The position numbers and the translations under genes are program-made. 64,000 bases of DNA from the NCBI GenBank assembly GCA_049297775.1, contig JBAQUX010000017.1:21337-85336 (forward strand), written 5' to 3'. This document shows positions 9,311 to 64,000 of this stretch, in pieces. This DNA comes from Minisyncoccia bacterium. Lineage in GTDB: Bacteria; Patescibacteriota; Minisyncoccia; Phycocordibacterales; UBA2100. How positions within the stretch are numbered: position 1 is the stretch's first letter; each line of letters starts with the position of its first letter. Below the pieces are notes generated by a model. That model saw nothing but the letters and a program-made list of their open reading frames with translations. It was not told the DNA's origin and did no database searches.

Positions 9311-10639
9311 CTAACTTTTTTCTTGTAACATTTCACGCACTTCTCGCACCAGATACAGTGAGCCACAGACACAGACAAGCGTACGTGGATCGCTCCCTAT
9401 GCACGCAGTATCAAGTGCCTGCGGTGTACTCGCCTGTACAGAAACAGAGGCGTATATATGCGCCGCAACGTTTTCTAGAACTGAGAGAGAAAGTCCTCGT
9501 GTATGCTCTATTTCTGTAATGACTATTGTTTCAGAAACAGCATGTAACTCACGTAACATCTCTTCAAATGGCTTTCCCGCGAGCGCGCTAAACAACAGCG
9601 TAACGTGTGATTCTAGCTCATGCTTTTTTATGTACGCGACAAGTGTACGTATACCATCAAGATTATGTGCGCCGTCTAATAATACGGGCGTATTTTTATA
9701 CATGCTGTACTCGAGGCGCCCAGGCCACTGCACACTTGCAAGCCCTGCACTATACGCATCAATCGGAATGGTAAGTCCACTATCAACAAGACGTTCTACC
9801 AGCATAATCGCGAGACATGCGTTCTGAACCTGATGCTCACCATGCATTTTGAGAACAATAGGATATGTGCCCTTCTCTGAAACGTAGGTAAACGCATAGG
9901 CACCATTACTATTGGTAACAGCTCGTACACTGTCTTGCATCGAGAGAAAGACTGGCACACCACCACGAGCAGTTATTTCGGTGTTCAGTACTTCGGTGCA
10001 CTCACCGTGTGGTTGGTATCCGATAATGAGTGGAATATTCTCTTTTGCGATTCCTGCTTTTTCTACAGCAATTTCAGTAATGGTGTCACCAAGAAAATCT
10101 TGGTGGTCATACCCAAGTGCAGCTATAGCGCACACGGTGGGCACACATACATTTGTTGCGTCGAGCCTTCCGCCGAGTCCTACCTCAAGAATCGCCACAT
10201 CTACTTGTAACTCGTTGAAATACCAAAACGCAAGGATGGTCATTTTCTCAAAAAAACTTAACTCATCGAGCAGACGCTCATCCGAAGCGAGTATTTCACA
10301 AGTCTCTTTAATACGCATTATTCCCCGACAAAAATCGTCATTTGAAATTGAAACGCCGGAAACTTGGATACGTTCATTAACGGATGAAATGTGTGGCGAT
10401 GTATATAATCCTGTCGCATACCCCGCAGAACGCACGATACTCTCTGTCATCGCAGAGGTTGAACCTTTACCATTTGTACCTGCTACATGCACTACGCGAT
10501 AGCCGTAATGCGGGTTCTGTAAGGCAGTAAGTACCATACGCACCCTTTCTAACCCAGGTTTCATTTTTGTTACCTCATCTCCAGCTTGTGAGAGATATGC
10601 GACTGCTTCATCATATGTCATGTGCCTCAACTCTATCAT
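9311..10639 (-). CDS. folC: Folylpolyglutamate synthase / dihydrofolate synthase (Mur ligase family)
   Basis: P-loop VVHVAGTNGKGST and Mur-ligase middle/C-terminal pattern. Confidence 0.82.
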   Translation of the reverse strand: MIELRHMTYDEAVAYLSQAGDEVTKMKPGLERVRMVLTALQNPHYGYRVVHVAGTNGKGSTSAMTESIVRSAGYATGLYTSPHISSVNERIQVSGVSISNDDFCRGIMRIKETCEILASDERLLDELSFFEKMTILAFWYFNELQVDVAILEVGLGGRLDATNVCVPTVCAIAALGYDHQDFLGDTITEIAVEKAGIAKENIPLIIGYQPHGECTEVLNTEITARGGVPVFLSMQDSVRAVTNSNGAYAFTYVSEKGTYPIVLKMHGEHQVQNACLAIMLVERLVDSGLTIPIDAYSAGLASVQWPGRLEYSMYKNTPVLLDGAHNLDGIRTLVAYIKKHELESHVTLLFSALAGKPFEEMLRELHAVSETIVITEIEHTRGLSLSVLENVAAHIYASVSVQASTPQALDTACIGSDPRTLVCVCGSLYLVREVREMLQEKS

Positions 10640-10663
10640 AGAGCTCGGCGCTGACGAGATTTT

Positions 10664-10686
10664 AAAAAATCCCCTTTCGGGGATTT
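10664..10686 (-). terminator. Intrinsic terminator (aatcccctttcggggatt followed by T-run on the minus strand) after rplU
   Basis: 7-bp GC-containing stem, 4-nt loop, TTTTTT on minus strand. Confidence 0.6.
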
Positions 10687-10688
10687 AA

Positions 10689-11045
10689 TTACGCTACTTT
10701 TTCAACGATAACTTTCATAAATGGCTGGCGATGACCATTCTTTTTGAAGTATCTACTTTTTTGGCGATATCTGATAACAACAACCTTCTTTGCGCGCCCT
10801 TCTACAGCAACCTTTCCTGTAACCTTTACACCTGAGAGGTATGGAGTACCTACTTTTTGAGTTGTCCCGTCGTCCACGAGGAGCACCTTATCAAAAGTGA
10901 CAGTACCACCCTCTTCTGCGCCGAAAATAGATTCAACAGTAATTGTAGTACCTTCATGCACAATGTATTGCTTGCCACCCGTCTCAACAATAGCCATTGT
11001 AGTTCCGAGCTTTTTTGTTTCTTTTTTAGCTGTTTTTTCTGACAT
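10689..11045 (-). CDS. rplU: 50S ribosomal protein L21 with basic N-terminal extension
   Basis: MAIVETGGKQYIVHEGTTI matches the L21 N-terminus; a K-rich extension precedes it, so the start is uncertain (alternative ATG 10997; ORF open to 11081). Confidence 0.75.
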   Translation of the reverse strand: MSEKTAKKETKKLGTTMAIVETGGKQYIVHEGTTITVESIFGAEEGGTVTFDKVLLVDDGTTQKVGTPYLSGVKVTGKVAVEGRAKKVVVIRYRQKSRYFKKNGHRQPFMKVIVEKVA

Positions 11046-11125
11046 GGGCGCTATACTAGCTGAAACTACTCGTAAATGCAAGGCTCCTAGCCCACCAGGC
11101 TTGTCGTGTTGCCTTGTTTTAACCT

Positions 11126-12277
11126 CTATTTGATAGCCTTCGCGACTGCTTTTGCTACACGTGGATCAAACGTCTTCGGAAGAATTTGCTTTGCGGTAGG
11201 TTTTGCAACGAGTTTTGCCAATGCCTCAGCAGCACGAACAAGCATACTATCAGTGATGTTGCGCACTTTATTATCGAGTGCGCCTCTAAATATTCCTGGG
11301 AATCCCAGTGAATTATTTACTTGATTTGGAAAATCAGACCGTCCAGTCGCAATAACAACTGCCCCGCCTCTTTTTGCCTCTTCAGGCATTATTTCAGGAA
11401 TTGGATTTGCCATGGCAAACACAATAGCGTTTTTATTCATAAGCTGTATCATTTCAGCAGTGACGGTGTTCCCTTTTGAAACACCAATAAAAACATCTGC
11501 TCCTAAGAGTGCATCAATGAGAGTGCCCACAACCAAATGCTTATTAGTTCGCTCAGCAAGAGATTTTTTATATCCGGTGAGGGTGATATCTGAAAGTGCG
11601 AGCACGCCCTTACTATCTACAACGAGCACATCGTGTATTCCGTACCCTAAAAGCATTTCTGTAATTGCAGCACCAGCGGCGCCAGCTCCAGCAACCACAA
11701 CCTTCACTGATTCTTTTTTCTTTTTTACAACTTTTAGCGCATTAATAAGCCCGGCAAGTACTACCATTGCAGTACCGTGTTGGTCATCATGCATTACTGG
11801 GATATCGAGCATTTCCTTGAGTCGTTTCTCGATTTCAAAACAACGAGGTGCCGCGATATCTTCAAGATTAATTCCGGCAAACGATGGTGCGATGTTTTTT
11901 ATTGTGGCAATGATTTCTTCAGTATCATGGGTTCCAAGGACGACAGGCACAGCATCAACATTTGCAAGTGCCTTAAAGAGATACGACTTCCCTTCCATCA
12001 CAGGAAGAGCACCTTCAGGACCAATATTACCCAACCCAAGCACTGCAGACCCATCTGAAACTACAGCAACAGTATTTCCGCGCCATGTGTAAGTATTTGT
12101 GTCTGCCTTGTTTTTTGCTACATGTGATGAGACAGCAGCAACACCAGGAGTGTACGCGAGGCGGAGCACTTCTTGCGTGAGTTTTGTCTTTGGCTTAATT
12201 TCAATTTTACCTCTATTTTTTTTATGAAATTCAAGCGCTAATATCTCAACTGATTTTTTATTTATTTTTTTCTTCAT
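11126..12277 (-). CDS. NAD(P)-dependent malic enzyme (short, MaeB-type catalytic domains)
   Basis: YTPGVAAVSSHVA motif and dinucleotide fold VVAGAGAAGAA. Confidence 0.85.
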   Translation of the reverse strand: MKKKINKKSVEILALEFHKKNRGKIEIKPKTKLTQEVLRLAYTPGVAAVSSHVAKNKADTNTYTWRGNTVAVVSDGSAVLGLGNIGPEGALPVMEGKSYLFKALANVDAVPVVLGTHDTEEIIATIKNIAPSFAGINLEDIAAPRCFEIEKRLKEMLDIPVMHDDQHGTAMVVLAGLINALKVVKKKKESVKVVVAGAGAAGAAITEMLLGYGIHDVLVVDSKGVLALSDITLTGYKKSLAERTNKHLVVGTLIDALLGADVFIGVSKGNTVTAEMIQLMNKNAIVFAMANPIPEIMPEEAKRGGAVVIATGRSDFPNQVNNSLGFPGIFRGALDNKVRNITDSMLVRAAEALAKLVAKPTAKQILPKTFDPRVAKAVAKAIK

Positions 12278-49527: not shown

Positions 49528-49598
49528 TGCTAGATCGTCTAATGGTAGGACAGCGCCCTCTGAAGGCGTTTATCTTGGTTCGAGTCCAAGTCTGGCAG
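49528..49598 (+). tRNA. tRNA-Gln (anticodon CTG), CCA not encoded
   Basis: Acceptor TGCTAGA/TCTGGCA with U1-A72, D arm GTCT..GGAC, anticodon stem GCGCC/GGCGT with loop CTCTGAA, T arm CTTGG TTCGAGT CCAAG, discriminator G. Confidence 0.75.
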
Positions 49599-51275
49599 CA
49601 AAGTAAACGAGTGAGCATCTAAACTGCTCTCACAGGCTTGTATAGAGCCAATTCTTTGTGGTTCTAACCTCGCATTAAGCGATTCTGCTACATTTGATAC
49701 GTTTTTAATGCCCAGTAGTGCTGCGGGCAAGCAAATACTGAGTTTTTTATCCTTGAGCGTGAGGTTCGAGCCAAGACCTTCAAGAACTTCTTTTTTAGCT
49801 TGCGGGTCGTTACTCGTAAGTTTCTCTTTTGCGTGTGTTGCAAAGTCTAAATATCCATTCGCAATGCCGGCCCAGTCGATTGCACGTTCGTGTACTTGTT
49901 GTGATGTATAGCGCACGTTGTTTAACTCCTTCTCTACTACACCTCGAGTTGCCAGTAGTTGCTCTGAACTAATCTCACCACTTGCTCGCATCATAACGAG
50001 GTTGTCCAGCTTTTTCATAAGTTCTGTCTCGCGCTTGCGGTTCTGCTGCACGATATGCTCTTGGTCATCAATTTCATTTCTGTGCAGATACTTTATTCCC
50101 TCGATTGCCCATTCATAGAAATCCTTCTCAATATGAATCTTTTGAACTTCCGCGAGTATCTGTGCTTCTAACTCTGCGGACTCCATGTACGGCTGCGCAC
50201 AGGCACCTCGCTTTTGCGTACAACGGTAATATGTTTTGTCTACAACCTTTAAACCTTTCATATCACTCGCATCGGTCCCACAGCGCGGGCACGCTGTAGA
50301 AATACGCATCGAAAACTTTTCTTTGCATTTGGGGCATCGAGCGTGCACTTTTCGTTCTGCCGTAATTGAACAGCCACATTCGCCGCAGTGTATATTTCCC
50401 CTAAATGGAAAAGTGTAAGTATTTATTTTTGTCGGCTTTCCACGCCTTCCAAGGAGTCTCTGGACCGTATTGAACTCGTATTCAGACACCATCACTTCAT
50501 GCTTCCCAATAAATTGGCCCTTATTGCCCTCTTCATCGTTCCACTCGAAATGCCCATAGTAGAAAGGGTTTGTGAAGATGTTGTAATAGCTTGCACGCGA
50601 ATAGATTTGACCACTCTTGTTCTTTAAGCCCAAAGCATCTCCCTCGCGCTTAATATCTGGCACAGAATACTGCCCAGAAATCATCTTCTTCCAAAGAACT
50701 TTCACAATTCCAAACGAATCAGACCGAACAATCTGATCTCCAAGCTTACCTTTGCCGCGGTGCGCGTAGCCTGGCGGCAATACAGACGCAGGGAACCATC
50801 CAAGTGAGGCTTTATATCTCTGACTGCGCTTTACGTCCGTACTTAAATCTTTTACATATTGATTCGACATGCCAAGCTCTACTGCCATCATCATGATATT
50901 GTCTGCAGGCTTGTAGACCCCAGAATGTGTTTGTATGTAAGCAATTTTTCCACTCTGCAACATGTGAATGATCTTCCCGCCATCTACAAAGTTTCGCGCG
51001 AGGCGATTTATCTTCCAACAGATAATCCCATTTGCCTCACCCTTTTCAATCCTTTTCAACATTGCATTAAAGGCGGGCCGTGCCTCTGGCTCTTTAGCGG
51101 ACTTGCTTTCCAAAATAACGTCGAGGATGTTTATCCCTAGTTTTAAAGCTAGGGACTTCATTTCACTTACTTGGTTATCAAGCGACAGGACCTGCTTATC
51201 CTCAGTGTCCGTAGACTTTCTTCCATACAGAAAGCACTTTATATCTCTACTTTTCAGGGGGTTAAAGTTGTTCAT
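49539..51275 (-). CDS. Large serine recombinase (integrase), 3' end overlapping tRNA-Gln
   Basis: N-terminal resolvase-type catalytic domain (FLYGRKSTDTEDKQ with catalytic Ser; ICWKINRLARN), recombinase domain, Cys-rich zinc-ribbon (CGECGC..CPKC..CPRCG), C-terminal coiled coil. Confidence 0.85.
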   Translation of the reverse strand: MNNFNPLKSRDIKCFLYGRKSTDTEDKQVLSLDNQVSEMKSLALKLGINILDVILESKSAKEPEARPAFNAMLKRIEKGEANGIICWKINRLARNFVDGGKIIHMLQSGKIAYIQTHSGVYKPADNIMMMAVELGMSNQYVKDLSTDVKRSQRYKASLGWFPASVLPPGYAHRGKGKLGDQIVRSDSFGIVKVLWKKMISGQYSVPDIKREGDALGLKNKSGQIYSRASYYNIFTNPFYYGHFEWNDEEGNKGQFIGKHEVMVSEYEFNTVQRLLGRRGKPTKINTYTFPFRGNIHCGECGCSITAERKVHARCPKCKEKFSMRISTACPRCGTDASDMKGLKVVDKTYYRCTQKRGACAQPYMESAELEAQILAEVQKIHIEKDFYEWAIEGIKYLHRNEIDDQEHIVQQNRKRETELMKKLDNLVMMRASGEISSEQLLATRGVVEKELNNVRYTSQQVHERAIDWAGIANGYLDFATHAKEKLTSNDPQAKKEVLEGLGSNLTLKDKKLSICLPAALLGIKNVSNVAESLNARLEPQRIGSIQACESSLDAHSFTLLPDLDSNQDKRLQRALSYH

Positions 51276-51550: not shown

Positions 51551-51889
51551 AGATTCTCTTGTGTTGTCATTTTCTTCTCCCTGCCCCTGGATACACCATT
51601 AGGTTTCCGGCGATTTAGAAGACATATCAGCATTGTCTCCGTTGGGAAGTTTCTCTGTTTATGCCGCGTGTCAGTTTGGATTATATGCTGTGTTTATGGC
51701 GGGCATACGAGTACCACAAACACCAAACTGATCTATTTTAAAGTGCTCATCCCTCGGTCCAAGCACTTACGATGTTGACAACATCACGTATATTTCACTC
51801 GCTACACACACATCGCGTAGTAATGCGAGGTCCTTTAGCCTTACTCCTGCAAGGCATGGTCAAAGAATATATTTTGCTAGGTTAAAAAA

Positions 51890-51925
51890 ATATGCAAAAT
51901 AAGGTCGCGACCTTATTTTGCATAT
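51890..51925 (-). terminator. Perfect 36-nt palindrome (atatgcaaaataaggtcgc|gcgaccttattttgcatat) overlapping the stop of 51913..52665; T-run on the minus strand
   Basis: 18-bp perfect stem without loop spacer, followed by TTTTTTT on the minus strand. Confidence 0.55.
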
Positions 51926-52665
51926 TTCCTTATTTCGTCCCTTATTTCCTTGCGTATTCTTAATATATGAGCCTGCTCATACTTTTTCCCAAACTTTGAT
52001 TTCACGCTGTCACTAAGTTTACCGATACCCAACTCGACATTCTTCCGAATATGCTCCCTCAACTCTTGGGATGATTCCTTTGGCCTTCGTGCTATTCCGA
52101 GTTTCACCTTAGGATTTTTGTGATATTTTTGCATCGGCAAAATCTCTCTCTGGTACTGATTCTTTACAAAACTAAGAATATCTTCCTTTGACACATATGG
52201 TGAAATGAGAATGGCGACAGGGTGATTTTGTACATTATGGCGAAGACCGTCTTCAAAAACTTGCTTCTCCTCTTTGTCCCAGTGCGGACCATTCAACTCT
52301 AACTGTATATTTACAGTTTGGATAAGTCCGTGCATTTGCAAATCTAGAGAGCCGCTCGGAAGCCAATCGTTGTAACATACATAATAAGAAAAAGTTTCAA
52401 CCCATATTGGCTCGAGCTTGAGCTTTTCGAAAACAATCTTTTCTATATCCTGGTAGAATTGTTTAGGAAGCGATGGTGTAGTTATGTTTTTCTCCTTACC
52501 GGGGAATCCTTTAACGCGAGCAAATGTTTCGTACCCACCCAACGGGATACCGTACTTTTTTCTTATCTTCCTAATTGATTCTGAAAGAGGGCGTTTTTCA
52601 ACCGTACTCATTAAATAGCTCCACACTTTTTGGTTTGGGTCTTGCATACGGATTGTGTCACTCAC
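51913..52665 (-). CDS. Hypothetical protein (250 aa, Lys-rich C-terminus)
   Basis: Clean ORF with strong terminator; no recognisable family. Confidence 0.5.
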   Translation of the reverse strand: MSDTIRMQDPNQKVWSYLMSTVEKRPLSESIRKIRKKYGIPLGGYETFARVKGFPGKEKNITTPSLPKQFYQDIEKIVFEKLKLEPIWVETFSYYVCYNDWLPSGSLDLQMHGLIQTVNIQLELNGPHWDKEEKQVFEDGLRHNVQNHPVAILISPYVSKEDILSFVKNQYQREILPMQKYHKNPKVKLGIARRPKESSQELREHIRKNVELGIGKLSDSVKSKFGKKYEQAHILRIRKEIRDEIRKYAK

Positions 52666-55499: not shown

Positions 55500-57791
55500 T
55501 CACATATTGTCAACCGTTGTCGCTTCATTTGCCAACGAGATACTCCCAGGACCTTCATCTGTTGAATCTTCCTTATCTAAAAAGAGCAACTCTCTTTCGT
55601 TCAATTTAGCTATGACTGGCTGTTTCAACTTCAATGCCTTTCCGATTATTATCGCATGTCTATCATCAAGTGTGGGAAGAATATTAGAGAAATCTGAACC
55701 GATATAGTTTTCTAGAAACTGTTTACCAGTGTCATCGAATACTCGCAAAGCGAATATTGTATTGCACTGATTCAAAATACTTTTACTTATATTTGCAGTG
55801 CGCTGAGTAACTACCATACTACCAAGACCGTACTTTCTTCCTTGCAATATAACTCTCGCCGTACCATTTGCAGCACTCTTGTCACCCTCATTTGCAACTG
55901 AGTTCCATTCTGGTATCAACGAATGAGCCTCTTCGTACACCAAAAATGCTTTTGCCTTTTCGGTTAAACCAGAGTCTCTACAGATTTCTAAAACTGTCTC
56001 GGACAATATCCGCGTAATCTCTGCAACAGACATCTCAGAGAATGGTGCGTACATCGACCAATTTTTCCCATCAAGTTGTCCGTTTTTTACATTCTCTTCT
56101 TGCTTCAGCGCAGTGATCTCCTCTGGATTTACTACTAAAACTCTTTTGGTGTTTTCTGTACTAAAAAATGCACCAAGCGCAGACCTCAGACATTCTTTGA
56201 GCAATTCAATGTCTCCACCGTCATGCTTAGAAACTTTTGGGATAGTTCTTGTTGTTTGCGTCGCAAGTTCGCTATTTAGTGTGGAAGTATCGAAAACCTA
56301 AAGTGCATCTTCTTGCAGGTATCGAGGTAAGCCGTGACTTTTATTCGCATACTGTCCTGTAATATCTATACATATTATTTTTGTCTCAGTTTTAGCACAA
56401 AGCTTTTGTATAAGTTCAAATGTTAAACATGACTTTCCTACACCAAGAATACCCAAAATAGCAGTATTATGTGTCACCAACGCATCGTAATCAGCAATTT
56501 GCATAACAAAATCTGTCCCCGGAAGTCTGCCGATACTATCTCCAGGTTTTATTTCCGCATGATTTTCCTGCGCGAATAGAGGCGCATACCCGTCCGGAAC
56601 CCATTTTGCCGTTAGTATTTCCTTTTTCTCTACGCTATATGTGCCAAGTTTTCTTGCGACACCCACAAGATATGAGTCGTTGTCGTGCCCAATGAGGTCA
56701 TCTCGTTTAGTAAATCCATCAAGTACTTGATATAGAACGTCTACGTTTCTAACCATAGAGCTCACAATCATCCCTTCTGTGATTTGAGAGCCCACATCGT
56801 TATTAAATATTCTAAACTGGACTTTATTAATATGTGAGTCTGGTAGAACATACCCTACGAGTGACTTACGGTTTTTGTATAACTCTGTGTTTTGTATGCG
56901 CCCCAGAGTTTCTGAATCAATATCCGCAGCATTCATTTTATATGCCTTATGGCTCGAGGTAATGTTTGTAGTTTCTGATTCAAAAACTTCACTGGTTAGC
57001 TCAGAAAGTACATGAACTAAAATCCAATTTTTGTCCAGTAGCATATTTTTTTGTACGACCACACCAAAACTCTTCTCCCCACGCTCATGAATCCTAACAA
57101 GGTCGCCCAAAGACACACTTTCTTGTGTATTCCTTGGATCTATTTCAACCTTAAATACGTATTTACTCTCATTACCAATTACTTTTCCTAAATATGTTTC
57201 TCGATCCCAAAGATTTCTCAAAAACTTAAATATGCCATCAATGACGTTTTCAACCAGGAAGCCTGAGATGAATACTACCCAAAAAGAAAAGAGTAAAATC
57301 TGGGCCACTTTATCTGATTGAAAATATGAGAATGTGGTGCTCAAGTAGATAACCGAATAAGCGACTTTTGATCTACCGAAATAAGTTAAGATGTTGCCGA
57401 AGATGTCAAAATATTTTGAATGTTCATATTTCCTAACAAGTAGTATGTAAAGGACGGAAAGTCCAACAAGCATTGAGGCGCACCCAATGAGAAAATCTCG
57501 CCCAATATATGCGTCAATGTCGTTTATGCCTAAGAGGAAGAGCAGGACACCAGTTGCATTAACCAGAACATCTGTAACTTTTGTAAAAAAAGGCTCGGCA
57601 ACATATGCGCCAAAAATAAGGAGTAGTCCGCCTGACACAAATATTTTGTTATACTGTGTTGAACTATCCAATATTGCCCAGAAATCTCCACCGGTTAGGT
57701 ACGTCAAGATTCCTAGTAGTACAAGTATATACACAACCACAACTAAAATCCTTTCTTTGAATCCCAGCTCTATTTTGGCTAGTGAAGACAT
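55500..57791 (-). pseudogene. Membrane-anchored HerA/FtsK-superfamily P-loop ATPase interrupted by a single in-frame TAG (56298-56300)
   Basis: N part (56298..57791): six TM helices, HAS-barrel-like segment, Walker A GILGVGKS. C part (55500..56204): Walker B FLVYEEAH and VVTQRTANISKS (TQRP-like) motif. Both parts are in the same frame; 31 sense codons lie between the TAG and the called TTG start. Confidence 0.7.
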
Positions 57792-57879
57792 GTCGAGAAG
57801 TATATCACTTTGCTTTATTTTTCGCCTTGGATGATTTTTCTACACTCATCCGTCCGAGAGAATAACGATCCTAACCTCC

Positions 57880-58284
57880 CTAAGGGTAGAGACTCGCGTA
57901 GTATTGTGCAATCTTCGTCATATCCGACTCAAAACGTTCCTTATCATCTTTGAATAAGCTCTGGGAACCAAACAGCGGTGAATCTGGCTCTGAAAAAACG
58001 TAAAAATCCCCCTGTACTGCTTCGCAGTGTGGGCATACATTTGCCCAATATTCACTATCACTCATTTGTGTGTAGCTTACTTTTACAGTTTTCGGTATTG
58101 GCTCAGGAGGTACTGATGGCTCATCTGCCCACTCATCTTCAGGCCACACGAACGCAACCATCTCCCCTTTACATTTCCAGCATTTATAGGGAGCGTAGCG
58201 GTATTTATATCCTTCAGGTAACGACACCTTAGTTGCCTCAGATATACGATTTATTACCAATAGAAACTGTTCGAGATTTTCCAT
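57880..58284 (-). CDS. Small zinc-ribbon protein (CWKC ... CPHC)
   Basis: 134 codons with two CxxC pairs; co-oriented between the 1011-aa gene and the ATPase. Confidence 0.55.
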   Translation of the reverse strand: MENLEQFLLVINRISEATKVSLPEGYKYRYAPYKCWKCKGEMVAFVWPEDEWADEPSVPPEPIPKTVKVSYTQMSDSEYWANVCPHCEAVQGDFYVFSEPDSPLFGSQSLFKDDKERFESDMTKIAQYYASLYP

Positions 58285-58333
58285 ATTTTATGATAGATCA
58301 CTGAAACTATTGCTTGCAAATAGATTTATTGCT

Positions 58334-61300
58334 CTAGTCTTTCTTAACAATATCGACCAGCGGCCAAAATGGCTCACTGCCTGCGGCGACTAAATCATTC
58401 ACAAGATCTCTCACAGCAGGCCTCAATTTTTCATTAGAGTAGAGGGCTGTAAACGCCTCTTCCCATGTTTCGTCAATATAGACCCACCGCAATTCATCGT
58501 TGCGTAACTTGTTATCACTTCCAAGGAAGTGTAGACGAATGATTGTAAGCGTATCTTCCGGTGCTGCGTTTGCCAGCAATGGGAGTGACTTGGTCATACC
58601 GTGATCCCAACTGAGGAGTCCCGAGGTCTTCTCCATAGTTGCTCTCAGGTGCTTTGCTAAATAAGGTAAGGATATCACACCCTCCTCCGCATCAACCCAA
58701 AGCCCAAACGACGAGAGTATTACTCGACTTTCAATATGCTCATTTGCCCAAGTCCAAAATGCGAGCAAACGTTCGAGGAAGAAGTGGTTGTTTTTTGTTT
58801 GTTCTTCTATCCATTTTTTGGCACCTGACCTTGAGAAGGCCTGCCCGCCAATAAACTTAATAAACTCTGAGAGTCTTTCTTCATTCTGTGTGTCAATAAA
58901 CCTCTTTAGAATCTCACTATTCTCCGGTGAAAAATTGTCGTAGTGCATGAACGCCAAACCGAAGTGCGTAGCAAGGCCTTCGTCTAGATCACGGAAGTAT
59001 TTGCGCTTCGTGTACCGATCTTTATTCAACTCCATTAGGTAAGAGTATTCGGGCTGCATTGCCGTGAACACGTCGTACCACAGACCAGACGTTAAATATC
59101 CCTCCATAGCGGCAAGGTACAAATCGTTATTATTTCTATCGAAAATCATCCCAAAATGCTCTTGCATCCATTTCGGGTCTCGTAGGTAAAATGTTGCGAG
59201 ATACTTACCAAACAAGAATCTAACCGCACGAGTCTTCTCATTCTGAGCTAGCAGTACGTAGATAGACTTCACATCATCGCTTAAACGTATTTCGTCAGTC
59301 TTCTTACCTTTCTTTTCCTGCAACTGCACGTCCTTATCCACAAACATTGCAAGTGCCTGAAAGGCACGGCCACGAACAGAGTTTATAGCCTTTGTAAAAG
59401 GATCTGACTCCGAATACTCCTCTTCACCATCGTACTTAGTTCTGAGCTTAGGAATCTCTTCCTCTGGCGTAGGATCACTACTGACAAGCAGATATGCAAG
59501 GGTCTCGATGAAAAATTGCCTATTCTTTTCAAAACTGACAGGCTCACCGTCATACCTAAGCAGGTGGTGCAATAAATCTGTCAATGCCACACAAACCCCA
59601 TCCCAGTCAGACAAAAAGAAATCCTGGTTATTCTTATCACGAGTAACCTTAGAAAAAGGATTCGATTTACCAGATTCAATTATTTTTTGAATAAAAGTTA
59701 TTACACTGCTCTGTTGGTCAGGAGTGAGCTTGCCGTCTTTTTTTAAGTAACCAATAACACCCCAAATATATTTGTATGTATAGCCGGGGTCGATACTTTC
59801 CCGATCAAAGAAGGATGCGGCATTGTCGAGGTATTCAGACGGTCTCTCCGCAAAATCCTCTTCAATTTCTGCCGCAACCCCAGAAGCACTAATTGGCCTC
59901 AGGAAGTTTTGACTTGTATCTTTAATATTTTCAGGCCTAAGACGAGTCTTAAGCAGCTCGATCACTTCGTTAAGTGGCTTACCCTTTACAGACTCTGGTG
60001 CCTGTGGAATAACAGTGCCACCTGTCACTCCACTCGACATTGGTGTAGGTATGTAGTTTGGGTCTAACTTCCAACCTAACCCTTGCATTTTTGCCTTCAG
60101 CTCTTCGTTTAAATGACTGTGAATACATGACGCAATGCGAGAGGCACGAATAAGCGAAAATCTTTTTTCGTCCTCTTTTTCATCAGCGGGAAAGAGCTTG
60201 AACAGGCCATCTATATATTCACTTTGTTGTTCATGAGACAGAAAGTTGAAATGTCGCTTTAGCAAAGTTGCATACTCAGCGCCATACATTAAGTCGTGCA
60301 GCTCTTCCTTATTCTTTACGTATAGTATTCGCTGAATTGCCTCCACGATTACATCCTTAAGTGCATCTGGAGTCAAAGACATCAGTGAGAGCTTTAGTCT
60401 CCATGTTGTCTCACTTTCAGTCAAAGCTCTTGGAAACTGTTCGTATACGTGCACAATATTTAGAGCAAAAGCATTCTCAACAGCCTTCTTATACAGCAAC
60501 TTGTAAACTGCAAAAAGACTTCTGATATCTTCCTGCGAGTAGCTCTCTATATTTAATACATCCAGTTCAAAAAAGTCTACATCGGAAAAATAAAGCCCAT
60601 CATCGAGTCCTGATTTTGATTCTTGAGGATACATTTCCATTGCGAGTTTTACTACACGGTTGAGTGCATCATGCACAATATTCAAGCTCTGCTCAGGTTC
60701 ATTTGTGGAGAGTAGTGCTTCCACAACTCCCGTTCGTTTAAGATCATCTACATAAAACCAGCGTCGTGAATACGAATGTTCAACGTCGCTATTCTTCTCG
60801 ACACCTTTTACCGTAAGGACAATTTGTGCCAACTTGTTGATGGTGGTATCGTCACCCGCACTCTTTAAAGTCTTAAACATTTCATCATACTCAAATCCCC
60901 AAGTTCTGTAAGCTGCAAGCCAGTGCACCCAATCTTCGGCAACCATTTTTTCAACAAACTTTGCAAGATTTTCTGGTGAAAACTTAGTGGCAATACTGCG
61001 GAAGCGAAGCGGGATATTCACATTTACATTTCCCTCTTTCAGAGGTAGCGATAGAATGTGCTTTGCAACCAAATCTTCATCAAACTCAACCATTCTTTCT
61101 AAAAAACGCATCTCGGGAGAGAAATATGTTTCTTTACCTATTGTATCAAGACTGAACTTTTCAATTGTCAGAAACTGATTTTCAATCAACCACAACAGCC
61201 ACTCTTTGCCAATTGTCGAAAAAATAAATCTTCTAGCATCTAAACTTGGGTTAGAAAGTTGAACAAACAATTTCGCGGCGGAGTTACTGTTAAAGTCGCC

Positions 61301-61369
61301 GTTCACGATCTTTGTAATCTCATTATGAATCTGAATTGGATCAGTTGCCATATTGGTTGTTTTCTTCAT
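58334..61369 (-). CDS. Large hypothetical protein (1011 aa, predominantly alpha-helical, no recognisable catalytic motif)
   Basis: Uninterrupted 3-kb ORF, 29-nt overlap with the upstream 250-aa gene. Confidence 0.6.
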   Translation of the reverse strand: MKKTTNMATDPIQIHNEITKIVNGDFNSNSAAKLFVQLSNPSLDARRFIFSTIGKEWLLWLIENQFLTIEKFSLDTIGKETYFSPEMRFLERMVEFDEDLVAKHILSLPLKEGNVNVNIPLRFRSIATKFSPENLAKFVEKMVAEDWVHWLAAYRTWGFEYDEMFKTLKSAGDDTTINKLAQIVLTVKGVEKNSDVEHSYSRRWFYVDDLKRTGVVEALLSTNEPEQSLNIVHDALNRVVKLAMEMYPQESKSGLDDGLYFSDVDFFELDVLNIESYSQEDIRSLFAVYKLLYKKAVENAFALNIVHVYEQFPRALTESETTWRLKLSLMSLTPDALKDVIVEAIQRILYVKNKEELHDLMYGAEYATLLKRHFNFLSHEQQSEYIDGLFKLFPADEKEDEKRFSLIRASRIASCIHSHLNEELKAKMQGLGWKLDPNYIPTPMSSGVTGGTVIPQAPESVKGKPLNEVIELLKTRLRPENIKDTSQNFLRPISASGVAAEIEEDFAERPSEYLDNAASFFDRESIDPGYTYKYIWGVIGYLKKDGKLTPDQQSSVITFIQKIIESGKSNPFSKVTRDKNNQDFFLSDWDGVCVALTDLLHHLLRYDGEPVSFEKNRQFFIETLAYLLVSSDPTPEEEIPKLRTKYDGEEEYSESDPFTKAINSVRGRAFQALAMFVDKDVQLQEKKGKKTDEIRLSDDVKSIYVLLAQNEKTRAVRFLFGKYLATFYLRDPKWMQEHFGMIFDRNNNDLYLAAMEGYLTSGLWYDVFTAMQPEYSYLMELNKDRYTKRKYFRDLDEGLATHFGLAFMHYDNFSPENSEILKRFIDTQNEERLSEFIKFIGGQAFSRSGAKKWIEEQTKNNHFFLERLLAFWTWANEHIESRVILSSFGLWVDAEEGVISLPYLAKHLRATMEKTSGLLSWDHGMTKSLPLLANAAPEDTLTIIRLHFLGSDNKLRNDELRWVYIDETWEEAFTALYSNEKLRPAVRDLVNDLVAAGSEPFWPLVDIVKKD

Positions 61370-62093
61370 GTTCTGATTCTAGTATCAAGGAGTACATTTG
61401 CTCGTCGATTTTATTGAAGACATGCTCAGTCAACTCCTTGTGACTTTCAAGCTTGTTATATCCATTGATCAAATCTTTAAACTTATTTAGACTCTCAGAG
61501 GTAGGGAGTAAGCATTCCTTTCTTGCAATTTCTCCTAGGAAACTTATTGCACTAACATAGTCCTTTCTATCTACACATCCACATGCACTCTTATATGATG
61601 TAATCGAGGAATTGTAACTGTAGATCTGTGGCATCTTTTCAATTATGTAGCTACGTCGCCCGCTTACTTTAAATGCTTCAGGCTCTGCACTTAGACTTCC
61701 AATACCACTTGACACAGGGCCGAAAAAAATACTTTCAATTGGGCCATTAACAACTGTTTGATGCACAGTCGATTGTTCGTTTGCAGAAGCGACTGCACTG
61801 GCCTTACTGAGGTCGGCATTGCCAGCTCCTATTGTATCTTCTCTTCTAAAAAAGCTCGTTGCGAGGCGATGAAAACCTGTGCCCATCAAGAACGTCGCGA
61901 ACAGCGTCATTGCGTATTGATAAGTAAAATCGTCTGCTTGAAAATCAGGGAAGAGAATATTATGTAGAAATGGGTATGCGATTGCAAAAGTCTGCCCGAA
62001 GACAAGTTCACCAGCACTAACAAGCCAGGGTGCAGAATCAACCGATTGATTCGCATCTGAGAACATTTTTTTAACTGATTCGAGTGCATTCAT
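61341..62093 (-). CDS. Hypothetical protein (250 aa, one hydrophobic segment)
   Basis: First gene of the minus-strand operon; preceded by a 380-nt AT-rich region with a palindrome. Confidence 0.5.
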   Translation of the reverse strand: MNALESVKKMFSDANQSVDSAPWLVSAGELVFGQTFAIAYPFLHNILFPDFQADDFTYQYAMTLFATFLMGTGFHRLATSFFRREDTIGAGNADLSKASAVASANEQSTVHQTVVNGPIESIFFGPVSSGIGSLSAEPEAFKVSGRRSYIIEKMPQIYSYNSSITSYKSACGCVDRKDYVSAISFLGEIARKECLLPTSESLNKFKDLINGYNKLESHKELTEHVFNKIDEQMYSLILESEHEENNQYGN

Positions 62094-62194
62094 CGATGGT
62101 CTGACTTAGATACACATTATACCACGCGCATAATACAGGTTCTAACCTTCCTAAGTTCTGCCAGCACATGAGCGGAGCGAAAGTGATGACAGAA

Positions 62195-62216
62195 GTTATC
62201 AAATAGTTTTGATAAC
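62195..62216. promoter_or_regulatory. Perfect 9-bp inverted repeat with 4-nt spacer (GTTATCAAA tagt TTTGATAAC), candidate operator
   Basis: In the intergenic region upstream of the 61341..62093 operon. Confidence 0.35.
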
Positions 62217-62270
62217 GCCTTGGACTCGAAGACCGGAGCGATGTTTTTGTTTGCAGTACTCTGCAAGGCA

Positions 62271-62292
62271 AAAACCGCGAGGTCCGGTTTTT
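62271..62292. terminator. Bidirectional terminator hairpin (aaaaccgcgaggtccggttttt)
   Basis: Stem aaaccg/cggttt flanked by A-run and T-run, downstream of the 62476 gene. Confidence 0.4.
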
Positions 62293-62475
62293 GGAAAAGT
62301 GAGTCAACACTTTTACCAAAAAGAGTCGAGTCTGGCAGCCAAGTTTAGTTAATAGAAGATAAAAAAAACGTTTATAAATAGTGTTTTTTATTAGAAAATT
62401 ATTTTTTCACTTTTACAATAATTTTTCATTACTGCCCAACTTTTGATACCCTGACAACAATTATCAATTTTATAA

Positions 62476-64000
62476 TTAATACTTGTTGTTAGCAGGAAAC
62501 AACTTTCTTGCTTCTGCCAAGTTAACTCTGAATTTATAGCCGTGCTTTTCTAGTAGCCCAAGTAGCTTTGCACCATCAAGCAATGTTATTGGTTTGTTTT
62601 GAACGAAAGCATAAGCATCTGCTCCAAAAGTACTAGTGGTAACAAGTATTCCTCTTGATGCACCTTCATGAGCGACAACTGCGACCAAGTCTCTTACAGC
62701 ACTCACATCTACAGTGTTTGTATATCTTTTAGCTTGAATTACATACTTACCACCCCTAATAGGGTCAGGATTAAAGACAATAGCATCGACGCCTTTATCA
62801 CGGCTCGATTGAGTTAATTTAATCTCTGTTCCTTCTTCAGAAAACTCTTTTTGGAAAAGCTCAGCAATAAGGTTTTCAAAATCCTGCCAATCCATTGATG
62901 CAAGGTTGGTTTGCGCATCTAGTGTTCCAATCACTTCCTTGGTCTTAATAAACCTCTTATCCTTTTTATCCAAAGACATTACAGGAGACACAGGAATAAT
63001 ATCTATCAATTTACCTGCAGACTTTCCTTTAAGACCTAAGAATGCCGACAACGGATCGAGCTTAGATAACTTAAGTTGAACTATTTGCTCTTTGGTTGTT
63101 GCAAGTGAAGCTGTATATGTACGAGTTAAATTACCTGTCGCAGGATCATCAAATTCTACCCAGCCATTAAGGACAAGGAGTTTAATTTTATCTGCATCAT
63201 CGTTGCGAAATATTTCATATGCAATTCGCAGCATAACAGAAGGATGTATATTCGGAATTAATTCCTTACCTTCTTTAATCGTGAGAGGTTTCTCAACTGT
63301 CTCCCTTTTGAGATGGACTTCCTTTAGGACTTGATTGTGTACAACATCAGGCAACTTTATTTCGACAATTGCAATACCCTCGTTAACGTCAAAGTCTATA
63401 TCCCAAACTTTAGGAATAGATGCTGGAACAGTGATGTTATCAATGACAAAGTTAAATCGTTTGATAACGTCTTCTTTTTCGCCTTTTTCATAACCACTTC
63501 TTATAGCTTTGAAGAAAGCTTTCGCTTCATTTCCTTCTTGAATATCCTTCTCGATTGTCTTATTAAACTCTGCTATTTCATTATTTAAGGCATAAATTGA
63601 AGCAAGGTTTGTAAGCTTGTTGCTCTCAACCTTTGAAGAAAACGACGGGAAAGGCTTGGTCTTATGCGGTTGTTTAACCAAATCTTTTTCAAGTTCATCC
63701 CAAGGGTGCAAATCGGCAGAAAGTATTAGAGGTATATCCTCAATACAAAGACTACCCTTCTCTTTTCTCTGTCGAGTTGATTTTAACTGTGAAGAATCTT
63801 TTCTTTCTGCTTTAACCTTGGCAAATTCTGCTCTATACCTTTTTACGTTACGCTCAACTTCTTTTATTGTTTCTTCCTGCTCCCATCTTTCCATTCTTAA
63901 TTTTCTTTCCTTTTCTGCTCGCTCATTATCCTCGGCTTGGTTTCGAGCTGTAATTATATCTTTTTCTGCTTGTAATTCTTTTTTTCTGTCAGCAAAGGCA
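62476..64000 (-). CDS. Mrr-cat (restriction-endonuclease-like) domain protein with long coiled-coil/charged N-terminal region; 5' end beyond window
   Basis: C-terminal MDWQDFENLIAELF...GVDAIVF...VIQAKRY...RGILVTTSTFGADA matches the Mrr N-terminal catalytic domain pattern. The reading frame stays open upstream of the called ATG (63894) to position 64000. Confidence 0.7.
   Translation of the reverse strand, partial: AFADRKKELQAEKDIITARNQAEDNERAEKERKLRMERWEQEETIKEVERNVKRYRAEFAKVKAERKDSSQLKSTRQRKEKGSLCIEDIPLILSADLHPWDELEKDLVKQPHKTKPFPSFSSKVESNKLTNLASIYALNNEIAEFNKTIEKDIQEGNEAKAFFKAIRSGYEKGEKEDVIKRFNFVIDNITVPASIPKVWDIDFDVNEGIAIVEIKLPDVVHNQVLKEVHLKRETVEKPLTIKEGKELIPNIHPSVMLRIAYEIFRNDDADKIKLLVLNGWVEFDDPATGNLTRTYTASLATTKEQIVQLKLSKLDPLSAFLGLKGKSAGKLIDIIPVSPVMSLDKKDKRFIKTKEVIGTLDAQTNLASMDWQDFENLIAELFQKEFSEEGTEIKLTQSSRDKGVDAIVFNPDPIRGGKYVIQAKRYTNTVDVSAVRDLVAVVAHEGASRGILVTTSTFGADAYAFVQNKPITLLDGAKLLGLLEKHGYKFRVNLAEARKLFPANNKY

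Follow-up and report, generated by a model that had tools for sequence, protein, structure and literature searches.

A predicted membrane-anchored Mrr-family nuclease encoded by a Minisyncoccia bacterium and its possible role against entering DNA

The DNA analyzed here (the window) is a stretch of 64,000 nucleotides from a Minisyncoccia bacterium, and the feature under study is an open reading frame on the minus strand that runs from the window edge to a TAA stop codon at 62476-62478. The first ATG of this frame inside the window is at 63894, and the open frame reaches base 63999/64000. An earlier reading made from the letters of the window (the sequence-only reading) had proposed that the true protein is longer, and this proved correct: a protein search returned a 100% identical full-length public protein of 649 aa, MFZ2593621.1 (also MFZ2707274.1; P0001 in the following), of which the window fragment is the part from residue 143 on. 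The true start codon lies about 425 bases past the window edge. Both entries carry the database label 'MAG: restriction endonuclease [Minisyncoccia bacterium]'; Minisyncoccia is a class of Minisyncoccota, a phylum of the candidate phyla radiation (CPR). The upstream sequence that the earlier reading had called for was obtained as a Logan contig of run SRR28011690 (locus L002), which holds the whole gene together with 10 kb upstream. An AF2 model of the 649-aa P0001, built on 58 homologues, had a mean pLDDT of 82, and the window coordinates of each protein part were checked by translation. The parts of the gene are as follows.

62476..64000, minus strand: ORF of the Mrr_cat nuclease, 3′ 507 codons, from the frame translation
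63781..63999, minus strand: long KE-rich helix, C-terminal two thirds (P0001 residues 143-215); AF2 helix 131-207, pLDDT about 90
63604..63780, minus strand: poorly structured connector (residues 216-274); mostly coil with short helices in AF2
63436..63603, minus strand: helical pair (residues 275-330); AF2 helices 275-314 and 317-329, pLDDT 89-95
63016..63435, minus strand: family-specific middle alpha/beta domain (residues 331-470); four strands, a long helix and a long beta hairpin
62905..63015, minus strand: conserved linker (about residues 471-507) with the motif IIPxxPxxxLxxxDxRF; AF2 pLDDT 44-61
62554..62904, minus strand: Mrr_cat PD-(D/E)xK domain (residues 508-624), Pfam PF04471
62875-62877, minus strand: codon of E517, verified
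62797-62799, minus strand: codon of D543, verified
62785-62787, minus strand: codon of D547, verified
62734-62736, minus strand: codon of Q564, verified
62728-62730, minus strand: codon of K566, verified
62476..62553, minus strand: C-terminal tail (residues 625-649) and the TAA stop, from translation
Outside the window: predicted membrane helix (residues 3-23), variable helical region (residues 25-130) and start codon

The Mrr catalytic pattern that the sequence-only reading had seen at the C-terminus is real, as the motif string is literally present and the catalytic residues are intact. Pfam PF04471 (Mrr_cat) matched fragment residues 366-482 of 507 with E=1.1e-31, covering 114 of the 115 profile positions, and its 109.8 bits, where the gathering score is 21, place the match far beyond chance. 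The motifs were read directly as WQDFENLIAELF...SSRDKGVDAIVF...YVIQAKRY...SRGILVTTSTF. Residues E517, D543, D547, Q564 and K566 were invariant in 58 close homologues, and E517, D543, D547 and Q564-A-K566 were kept in at least 97% of 94 representatives of clusters formed at 50% identity. Mrr-type nucleases are typified by acidic residues together with a QxK form of the (D/E)xK motif, and we take the conserved positions to be their counterparts. The AF2 model showed a restriction-endonuclease-like alpha/beta fold at residues 513-646, with a pLDDT of only 63-86 in the full model (helices 513-527 and 574-587; strands 534-538, 548-552, 559-566 and 591-596). A Foldseek search with the full model matched the nuclease folds of MspJI, AspBHI and AF1548 (entries 4f0q, 4oc8 and 1y88), with MspJI and AspBHI as the top matches at E=1e-7 to 7e-6. 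By its sequence, P0001 is probably an active DNA endonuclease of the Mrr family of PD-(D/E)xK enzymes.

The region before the nuclease domain is long, as had been noted, but the size given for it (more than 370 aa) falls short, since 507 residues precede Mrr_cat in the full protein. The KE-rich coiled coil described within it was predicted by AF2 as one continuous helix of 77 residues (131-207). The upstream sequence also revealed a predicted N-terminal membrane helix that lies outside the window. Of 111 close full-length homologues, 109 have a hydrophobic 19-mer that begins at about residue 1-3, by the criterion of a Kyte-Doolittle mean of 1.6 or more over 19 residues; this 19-mer had a Kyte-Doolittle value of 2.26, and AF2 placed a helix at residues 3-23 of P0001. 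In these 109 homologues the count of lysine and arginine residues was 0.13 before the 19-mer and 2.1 in the next 15 residues, which by the positive-inside rule corresponds to a C-in orientation. This simple count of hydrophobicity and charge thus suggests a single N-terminal transmembrane helix with an N-out/C-in topology and with the bulk of the protein in the cytoplasm. Among 93 diverse full-length representatives, 49 (53%) had the hydrophobic N-terminal helix; many of the remaining 44 start with a small domain that carries an 'H-x-G-L-N-K-Y' motif, followed by helices. With the membrane helix missing from about half of the members, anchoring is not essential to the core function.

The middle domain is specific to this family. 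Its core (residues 341-443) was modeled as a compact alpha/beta structure with pLDDT above 90 in the full AF2 model, a separate model of residues 268-472 had a pLDDT of 92.7 and a pTM of 0.80, and the helical pair at residues 275-330 packs on it. No Pfam family matched the region before Mrr_cat in five diverse members at relaxed thresholds, and PDB searches with a profile of the whole protein, with one of the middle domain and with the nuclease domain found no relative by sequence. In a fold search with the middle-domain model, SRA, winged-helix and restriction-endonuclease folds were absent from the top 60 matches; the long MspJI alignment of the full model therefore reflects the nuclease domain only. 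The statement of the sequence-only reading that no methyl-DNA reader is recognizable was borne out by these searches, as no known modified-DNA reader (Mrr_N winged helix, SRA-like, YTH and others) was found in the window protein. The case that had been named against the earlier reading, an N-terminal region from a housekeeping family together with a domain of Mrr_cat-like fold that lacks catalytic residues, was not what was found, since the upstream region matched no Pfam family and the catalytic residues are kept. The net charge of the middle domain is -2 in P0001, and no obvious basic DNA-binding surface was seen.

When the middle-domain profile was searched against 1.84 billion cluster representatives, it matched 1,584 clusters with a cut-off of E≤1e-3, of which 770 also passed E≤1e-10. 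Among the best 150 matches, all 106 that extend past the domain run into Mrr_cat, and the other 44 look truncated, ending within or shortly after the middle domain or the linker; no effector domain other than Mrr_cat was fused to the middle domain in these 150. Since every one of these continuing members has Mrr_cat, the middle domain, the linker and Mrr_cat form an obligate three-part core. Conservation falls in steps along the protein: across 94 representatives, the identity to P0001 was 64% for Mrr_cat, 39% for the linker, 33% for the middle domain and at most 14% for everything upstream. Linker residues P481, D489, R491 and N507 were kept in at least 97% of the 94 representatives despite the low pLDDT of this segment. 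Upstream of the core, the helical pair had an occupancy of 94% with 14% identity and the connector had a family identity of 7%, while the long KE-rich helix was the least conserved part, with 4-7% identity and 36% occupancy.

The three-part core was found in several CPR lineages, in Acidobacteriota (including the cultured Granulicella mallensis), Planctomycetota, Chloroflexota, Pseudomonadota and Bipolaricaulota, and in the archaeon Methanosarcina. Plasmid-borne members occur in Methylocystis, Methylobacterium, Agrobacterium, Xanthomonas, Clostridium felsineum and Streptomyces. No phage-encoded relative was found in 50,697 phage records by tblastn, and none was found in IMG/VR by a pattern scan of limited sensitivity. 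The PADLOC search proposed in the earlier reading returned the model PDLC03663 (mREase_IV) with E=2e-45 over profile positions 178-526 of 544, that is, over the middle domain and the nuclease, and the label agrees with the earlier wording 'type IV-like'. The same model covers a Methanosarcina relative without a transmembrane helix over profile positions 32-531 and covers the anchored form only over the core. The mREase_IV profile is a candidate type IV model, and its label rests on homology. The gene is a routine member of its family, whose proteins are labeled 'restriction endonuclease' at NCBI and candidate type IV enzyme in PADLOC. No experimental study of any member of this Mrr_cat family was found in the literature, and the architecture of the family (an anchor in half of the members, an obligate middle domain, no recognized reader and a SNIPE-like layout) was not found described in full-text literature.

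The genomic neighborhoods of the relatives point to mobile elements. In five close relatives (L003, L007, L008, L009 and L016), an intact HTH_17 gene lies 2-8 nt upstream of the nuclease gene, a conserved gene of about 385 aa lies further upstream, and a large serine recombinase gene lies downstream. The recombinase gene follows the nuclease gene directly in four of these loci; in L016 it begins about 0.6 kb from the nuclease gene and appears as two pieces. Four of the five loci (L003, L008, L009 and L016) have a tRNA-Asn gene where the recombinase region ends, and in three of them the two overlap. Similar surroundings were seen elsewhere: a complete Peregrinibacteria genome has an XRE-type HTH gene 4 nt upstream of the homologue, with a DUF2806 gene and an IS1595 fragment downstream; on the Methylocystis plasmid a resolvase gene overlaps the start of the nuclease gene; and on Clostridium felsineum p19 a recombinase gene comes after it. 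In Pseudochrobactrum the nuclease gene directly follows a Cro/CI-type (LexA/CI-family) repressor pair in a prophage-like region, and, as no relatives were found in phage records or IMG/VR, the prophage link rests on this one locus. A Pfam scan of 115 genes flanking 60 relatives showed only serine recombinases (4 genes) and HTH_17 (2 genes) to recur, with no conserved partner gene among them, and no methyltransferase was found among the neighbors of the nuclease gene.

In the window genome, the HTH_17 gene is present only as a frameshifted remnant outside the window (L002, 9819-9985), in which a run of seven A places the ATG out of frame with the HTH frame. Its conceptual product is 28-40% identical to the intact partners, the recognition-helix consensus is lost, and Pfam HTH_17 did not match it. 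No remnant of the 385-aa gene was found upstream of the nuclease gene, and the 850-bp gap upstream of the nuclease gene gave no Rfam or tRNA match. The idea that the window carries the same element with extra cargo was not borne out, as the serine recombinase of the window is only 22% identical to those adjoining the CPR relatives.

Four genes follow the nuclease gene downstream on the same strand; their products are an orphan of 250 aa, a protein of 1011 aa, a Zn-ribbon protein of 134 aa and a HerA-like ATPase. Over residues 436-843 the 1011-aa protein is similar to the C-terminal portion of Dsr1, with the SIR2 domain absent, and the HerA-like gene has an in-frame TAG. The features between and around these units are the following.

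62094..62475, no strand: AT-rich gap of 382 bp between the Mrr gene and the downstream operon, from the sequence
62329-62344: near-copy of the tRNA-Gln 3′ end, 16 nt with 15/16 bases; a weak match, E=0.5 within the window
49539-51275, minus strand: large serine recombinase gene, overlapping tRNA-Gln
49528-49599: tRNA-Gln gene, overlapped by the 3′ end of the large serine recombinase gene

The association with this ATPase operon that the sequence-only reading had suggested found no support. The two HerA halves and the three other operon proteins were compared by tblastn with 85 related loci, including flanks of up to 6-10 kb; matches were found only to the same sample's own contig, and none of the 85 loci has homologues of the operon. 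Unlike the SIR2-HerA and DUF4297-HerA systems, these loci show no conserved adjacency to a HerA gene. No consensus terminator was found in the 382-bp gap. The single copy of the tRNA-Gln 3′-end repeat sits inside this gap, which has the Mrr-like gene on one side and the 250-aa gene on the other, and two independent Logan contigs of SRR28011690 end at 62295 and 62314. As a lead, the repeat may mark an island boundary between the Mrr gene and the operon. Should the repeats be attachment sites, they would enclose an island of 12.7 kb that has a recombinase of its own and includes the HerA-type operon, with the Mrr-like gene just outside. For the window as such, this is an ordinary accessory nuclease whose gene sits in a variable region beside an integrative island.

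Four known systems come closest to P0001. Like EcoKMrr and the MspJI/AspBHI class, it has a C-terminal PD-(D/E)xK nuclease of the Mrr_cat type with the E, D and QxK residues and is a solitary gene with no methyltransferase. Unlike these enzymes, the P0001 family has neither an Mrr_N winged helix nor an SRA-like reader; in their place P0001 has the predicted membrane helix, a helical stalk and a domain without known relatives. A different resemblance is to SNIPE (Nature 2026), the one membrane-bound nuclease characterized so far that cleaves the DNA of a phage while it is being injected. This N-out/C-in protein crosses the membrane once and is made up of a variable N-terminal region, DUF4041 in the middle, a linker helix and a C-terminal GIY-YIG nuclease; its anchor is reported to protect the host DNA from cleavage (PMC13190303). 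Its conservation is highest in the nuclease, lower in the middle domain and lowest in the N-terminal region, one transmembrane helix is present in 59% of its homologues and two in 7%, and its DUF4041 has a basic surface (PMC13190303). P0001 has the same order of parts (predicted N-terminal transmembrane helix, variable helices, middle domain, linker and C-terminal nuclease) and the same conservation gradient, and its transmembrane helix likewise occurs in part of the members (53%, compared to 59% plus 7%). In contrast to SNIPE, the nuclease here is Mrr_cat rather than GIY-YIG, and the middle domain has the form of an alpha/beta sandwich and carries no net positive charge; DUF4041 was termed a coiled-coil domain in an earlier paper. 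SNIPE also has partners such as ManYZ and tape-measure proteins. Homology between the two families was considered and set aside, as Pfam DUF4041 gave no match in five members at relaxed E values and there was no match to the PADLOC PD-lambda or PD-T4 models. The parallel with SNIPE is therefore one of layout only.

Two other systems bring Mrr-type nucleases to the membrane. Epona, from a Vibrio integron cassette, combines Mrr_cat with a holin-like domain of two transmembrane helices and is reported to be anti-phage (10.1101/2024.07.02.601686). It has membrane segments and Mrr_cat in one protein, as P0001 is predicted to have, but its two helices are of the holin type and, going by its description, it has no large stalk or middle domain. 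ZorD of the Zorya system is an SNF2 helicase with a C-terminal Mrr-like nuclease that is recruited by the membrane ZorAB motor (PMC12904381). It too represents an Mrr-like nuclease at the membrane acting against entering DNA; in contrast to P0001, which is a single polypeptide with its own predicted anchor, ZorD is soluble, fused to a helicase and part of a four-gene system. A planctomycete member of the family gave a weak PADLOC ZorD match on the nuclease domain (E=5e-7).

A defense or exclusion nuclease is favored by the features that the family shares with SNIPE (its layout, its conservation gradient and a transmembrane helix in part of the members), by its carriage on mobile elements without conserved partner genes and by the Epona precedent. 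Our main reading, to which we assign a probability of about 0.5, is that P0001 is a stand-alone nuclease, borne by mobile elements, that acts on entering DNA at the membrane. The membrane anchor and the long helical stalk would hold the nuclease at the membrane and off the nucleoid, and the middle domain and linker would restrain it and recognize a cue, which may be modified DNA or part of the machinery through which DNA enters. When foreign DNA enters, the C-terminal nuclease would cut it near the membrane. A broader and more tentative proposal, which we regard as rather doubtful, is that the whole family, which spans bacteria and archaea with about 1,600 clusters, represents a second class of SNIPE-type defense that evolved independently. 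In such a class the nuclease would be tethered to the membrane or to another envelope-directed N-terminal module and would cut foreign DNA on its entry, Mrr_cat would replace GIY-YIG, and the alpha/beta middle domain with the linker would act as a sensor of either the entry machinery or the DNA that comes in.

Several other explanations were weighed against the defense or exclusion nuclease. In modification-dependent enzymes of type IV the target is recognized by a reader, such as the SRA-like domain of MspJI or the winged helix of EcoKMrr. P0001 could be a classical enzyme of this kind, with the middle domain as a new modified-base reader and the membrane helix as incidental; the span of the mREase_IV match over both domains, the rank of MspJI and AspBHI as top Foldseek matches of the full model and the solitary gene without a neighboring methyltransferase are all in keeping with this main rival, which we regard as a possible but not a likely explanation. 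The gene could also encode the toxic half of a two-gene module controlled by an upstream HTH protein, either as a toxin-antitoxin-like addiction system or as an abortive-infection effector that degrades host DNA. The closely spaced HTH_17 genes of the five relatives, the XRE-type gene of Peregrinibacteria and the LexA/CI-family repressor directly upstream in Pseudochrobactrum would fit such a module. However, the window genome keeps only a decayed HTH remnant beside an intact nuclease gene, which argues against the HTH protein as a required antitoxin, no such partner was seen in most lineages (Acidobacteria, Planctomycetes and Methanosarcina), and an HTH_17 gene beside a serine recombinase is more simply an excisionase-type gene of the element. 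We therefore consider the two-gene module unlikely.

The remaining two explanations are less probable still. CPR bacteria rely on imported building blocks, and a membrane nuclease would be well placed to turn imported DNA into nucleotides, so that P0001 might be a housekeeping or scavenging nuclease of a reduced genome; it might also be an inactive structural relic. Against the housekeeping role is the patchy occurrence of the family, which is scattered over unrelated phyla and archaea and is carried by plasmids and integrative elements, as would not be expected of a housekeeping gene. Against a relic are the retained catalytic residues and the much better match to the active Mrr_cat model (E=1e-31) than to NA-iREase1, its 'inactive' relative (E=4e-11). 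Both proposals are very improbable. No more can be said for P0001 as an effector of the neighboring HerA-type operon: its gene lies on the same strand and immediately upstream of the genes for the 250-aa, 1011-aa, Zn-ribbon and HerA-like proteins, but the four operon genes have no homologue in the 85 related loci, the 382-bp gap with its weak repeat and possible island boundary separates the two units, and the HerA-like gene carries the in-frame TAG.

The databases file the family as putative type IV on the nuclease domain alone. If the SNIPE-type reading is true, this label would be wrong, and self would be told from non-self by location and not by DNA modification. Should the parallel with SNIPE be functional, discrimination by location would be more general than one family and would reach CPR bacteria and archaea, where defense is poorly known; should it not be, the middle domain would become a candidate for a new DNA-modification reader. 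The family includes members from cultured sources, for example Granulicella mallensis, Methanosarcina, Methylocystis, Methylobacterium and the Clostridium felsineum plasmids.

Relatives of the Mrr-like gene, which encodes an Mrr_cat nuclease with a predicted membrane anchor, were found in a compact module of approximately 5 kb that is recurrent in CPR and other MAGs. In the module, a gene for a protein of approximately 385 aa with no Pfam match is joined by an HTH_17 gene and by the anchored Mrr-like gene. The remaining part is a large serine recombinase region, and an opposite-strand tRNA-Asn gene lies at or overlaps the end of this region. The ~385-aa gene was not seen in L009, where the contig stops just upstream. 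The module probably represents a small integrative element that targets tRNA genes and carries the nuclease as its sole cargo. These modules, and a locus with a homologue from Peregrinibacteria, are located as follows.

L003 6453-11525: module
L008 4468-9422: module
L009 178-3840: module
L016 4282-9778: module
L005 (CP065009.1) 9798-11175: Peregrinibacteria locus, where a DUF2806 gene and a fragment of an IS1595 transposase come after the homologue

In L005, an XRE HTH is found 5′ of the homologue, with a tRNA-Pro approximately 230 nt upstream of this HTH. Belisama, a reported defence protein, has DUF2806 as its domain.

The remnant of an HTH_17 gene was also found next to the Mrr-like gene itself, outside the window, on the Logan contig that holds the whole gene.

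L002 9819-9985: HTH_17 gene remnant, approximately 16-180 nt 5′ of the true start codon of the Mrr-like gene

In the remnant, a run of seven A residues shifts the ATG out of the HTH frame. The conceptual product shares 28-40% identity with the intact partners found in close relatives. The 850-bp stretch that contains the remnant holds no convincing gene.

The membrane helix is missing in approximately 47% of the family representatives. Many of these helix-less members (for example, L054 5356-7026 and L060 5248-7059) have a small N-terminal domain with an 'H-x-G-L-N-K-Y...G' motif that is followed by helices; in the two members examined, this domain matched no Pfam family.

The window itself also has a tRNA gene, a large serine recombinase gene and the operon downstream of the Mrr-like gene.

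49528-49599, plus strand: tRNA-Gln
49539-51275, minus strand: large serine recombinase gene, 3′ end overlapping tRNA-Gln
55500-57791, minus strand: HerA-like ATPase gene, one reading frame broken by a single in-frame TAG
57880-62093, minus strand: three genes 5′ of the HerA-like gene, for a 250-aa orphan, a 1011-aa protein and a 134-aa double Zn-ribbon protein

A repeat is shared between the tRNA-Gln region at 49528-49604 and positions 62329-62344, where a 15/16-nt copy of the tRNA-Gln 3′ end sits in the gap separating the Mrr-like gene from the 250-aa gene. Statistical support for this match is weak (E=0.5), and the two copies may be the attachment repeats of a 12.7-kb island. Two independent Logan contigs (run SRR28011690) end at window positions 62295-62314, where they overlap by approximately 20 nt. 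This suggests an assembly-graph branch, possibly from population heterogeneity, where the Mrr-like gene meets the operon downstream of it.

The 250-aa, 1011-aa, Zn-ribbon and HerA-like genes together resemble a candidate defence module of HerA type not described before. In the 1011-aa protein, residues 436-843 align to PADLOC Dsr1 over the C-terminal part of that profile (E=7e-21), and no SIR2 domain is present. Judged by eye, the N-terminal ~200 residues of the HerA-like protein include several apparent hydrophobic membrane segments, and its stretch from Walker A to the C-terminal region appears to be approximately 100 residues shorter than in the PADLOC HerA profiles. The in-frame TAG lies at 56298-56300 (...RYLQEDAL*VFDTST...); the interruption may mark a pseudogene, arise from a sequencing error or be read through.

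GC content is 0.37-0.43 across 56000-64000 compared to 0.41-0.47 elsewhere in the window, and this drop is consistent with acquired DNA. An inverted repeat at 51883-51932, located just 5′ of the minus-strand ORF 51913-52665, consists of two adjoining 25-nt arms that are 92% complementary, with no spacer.
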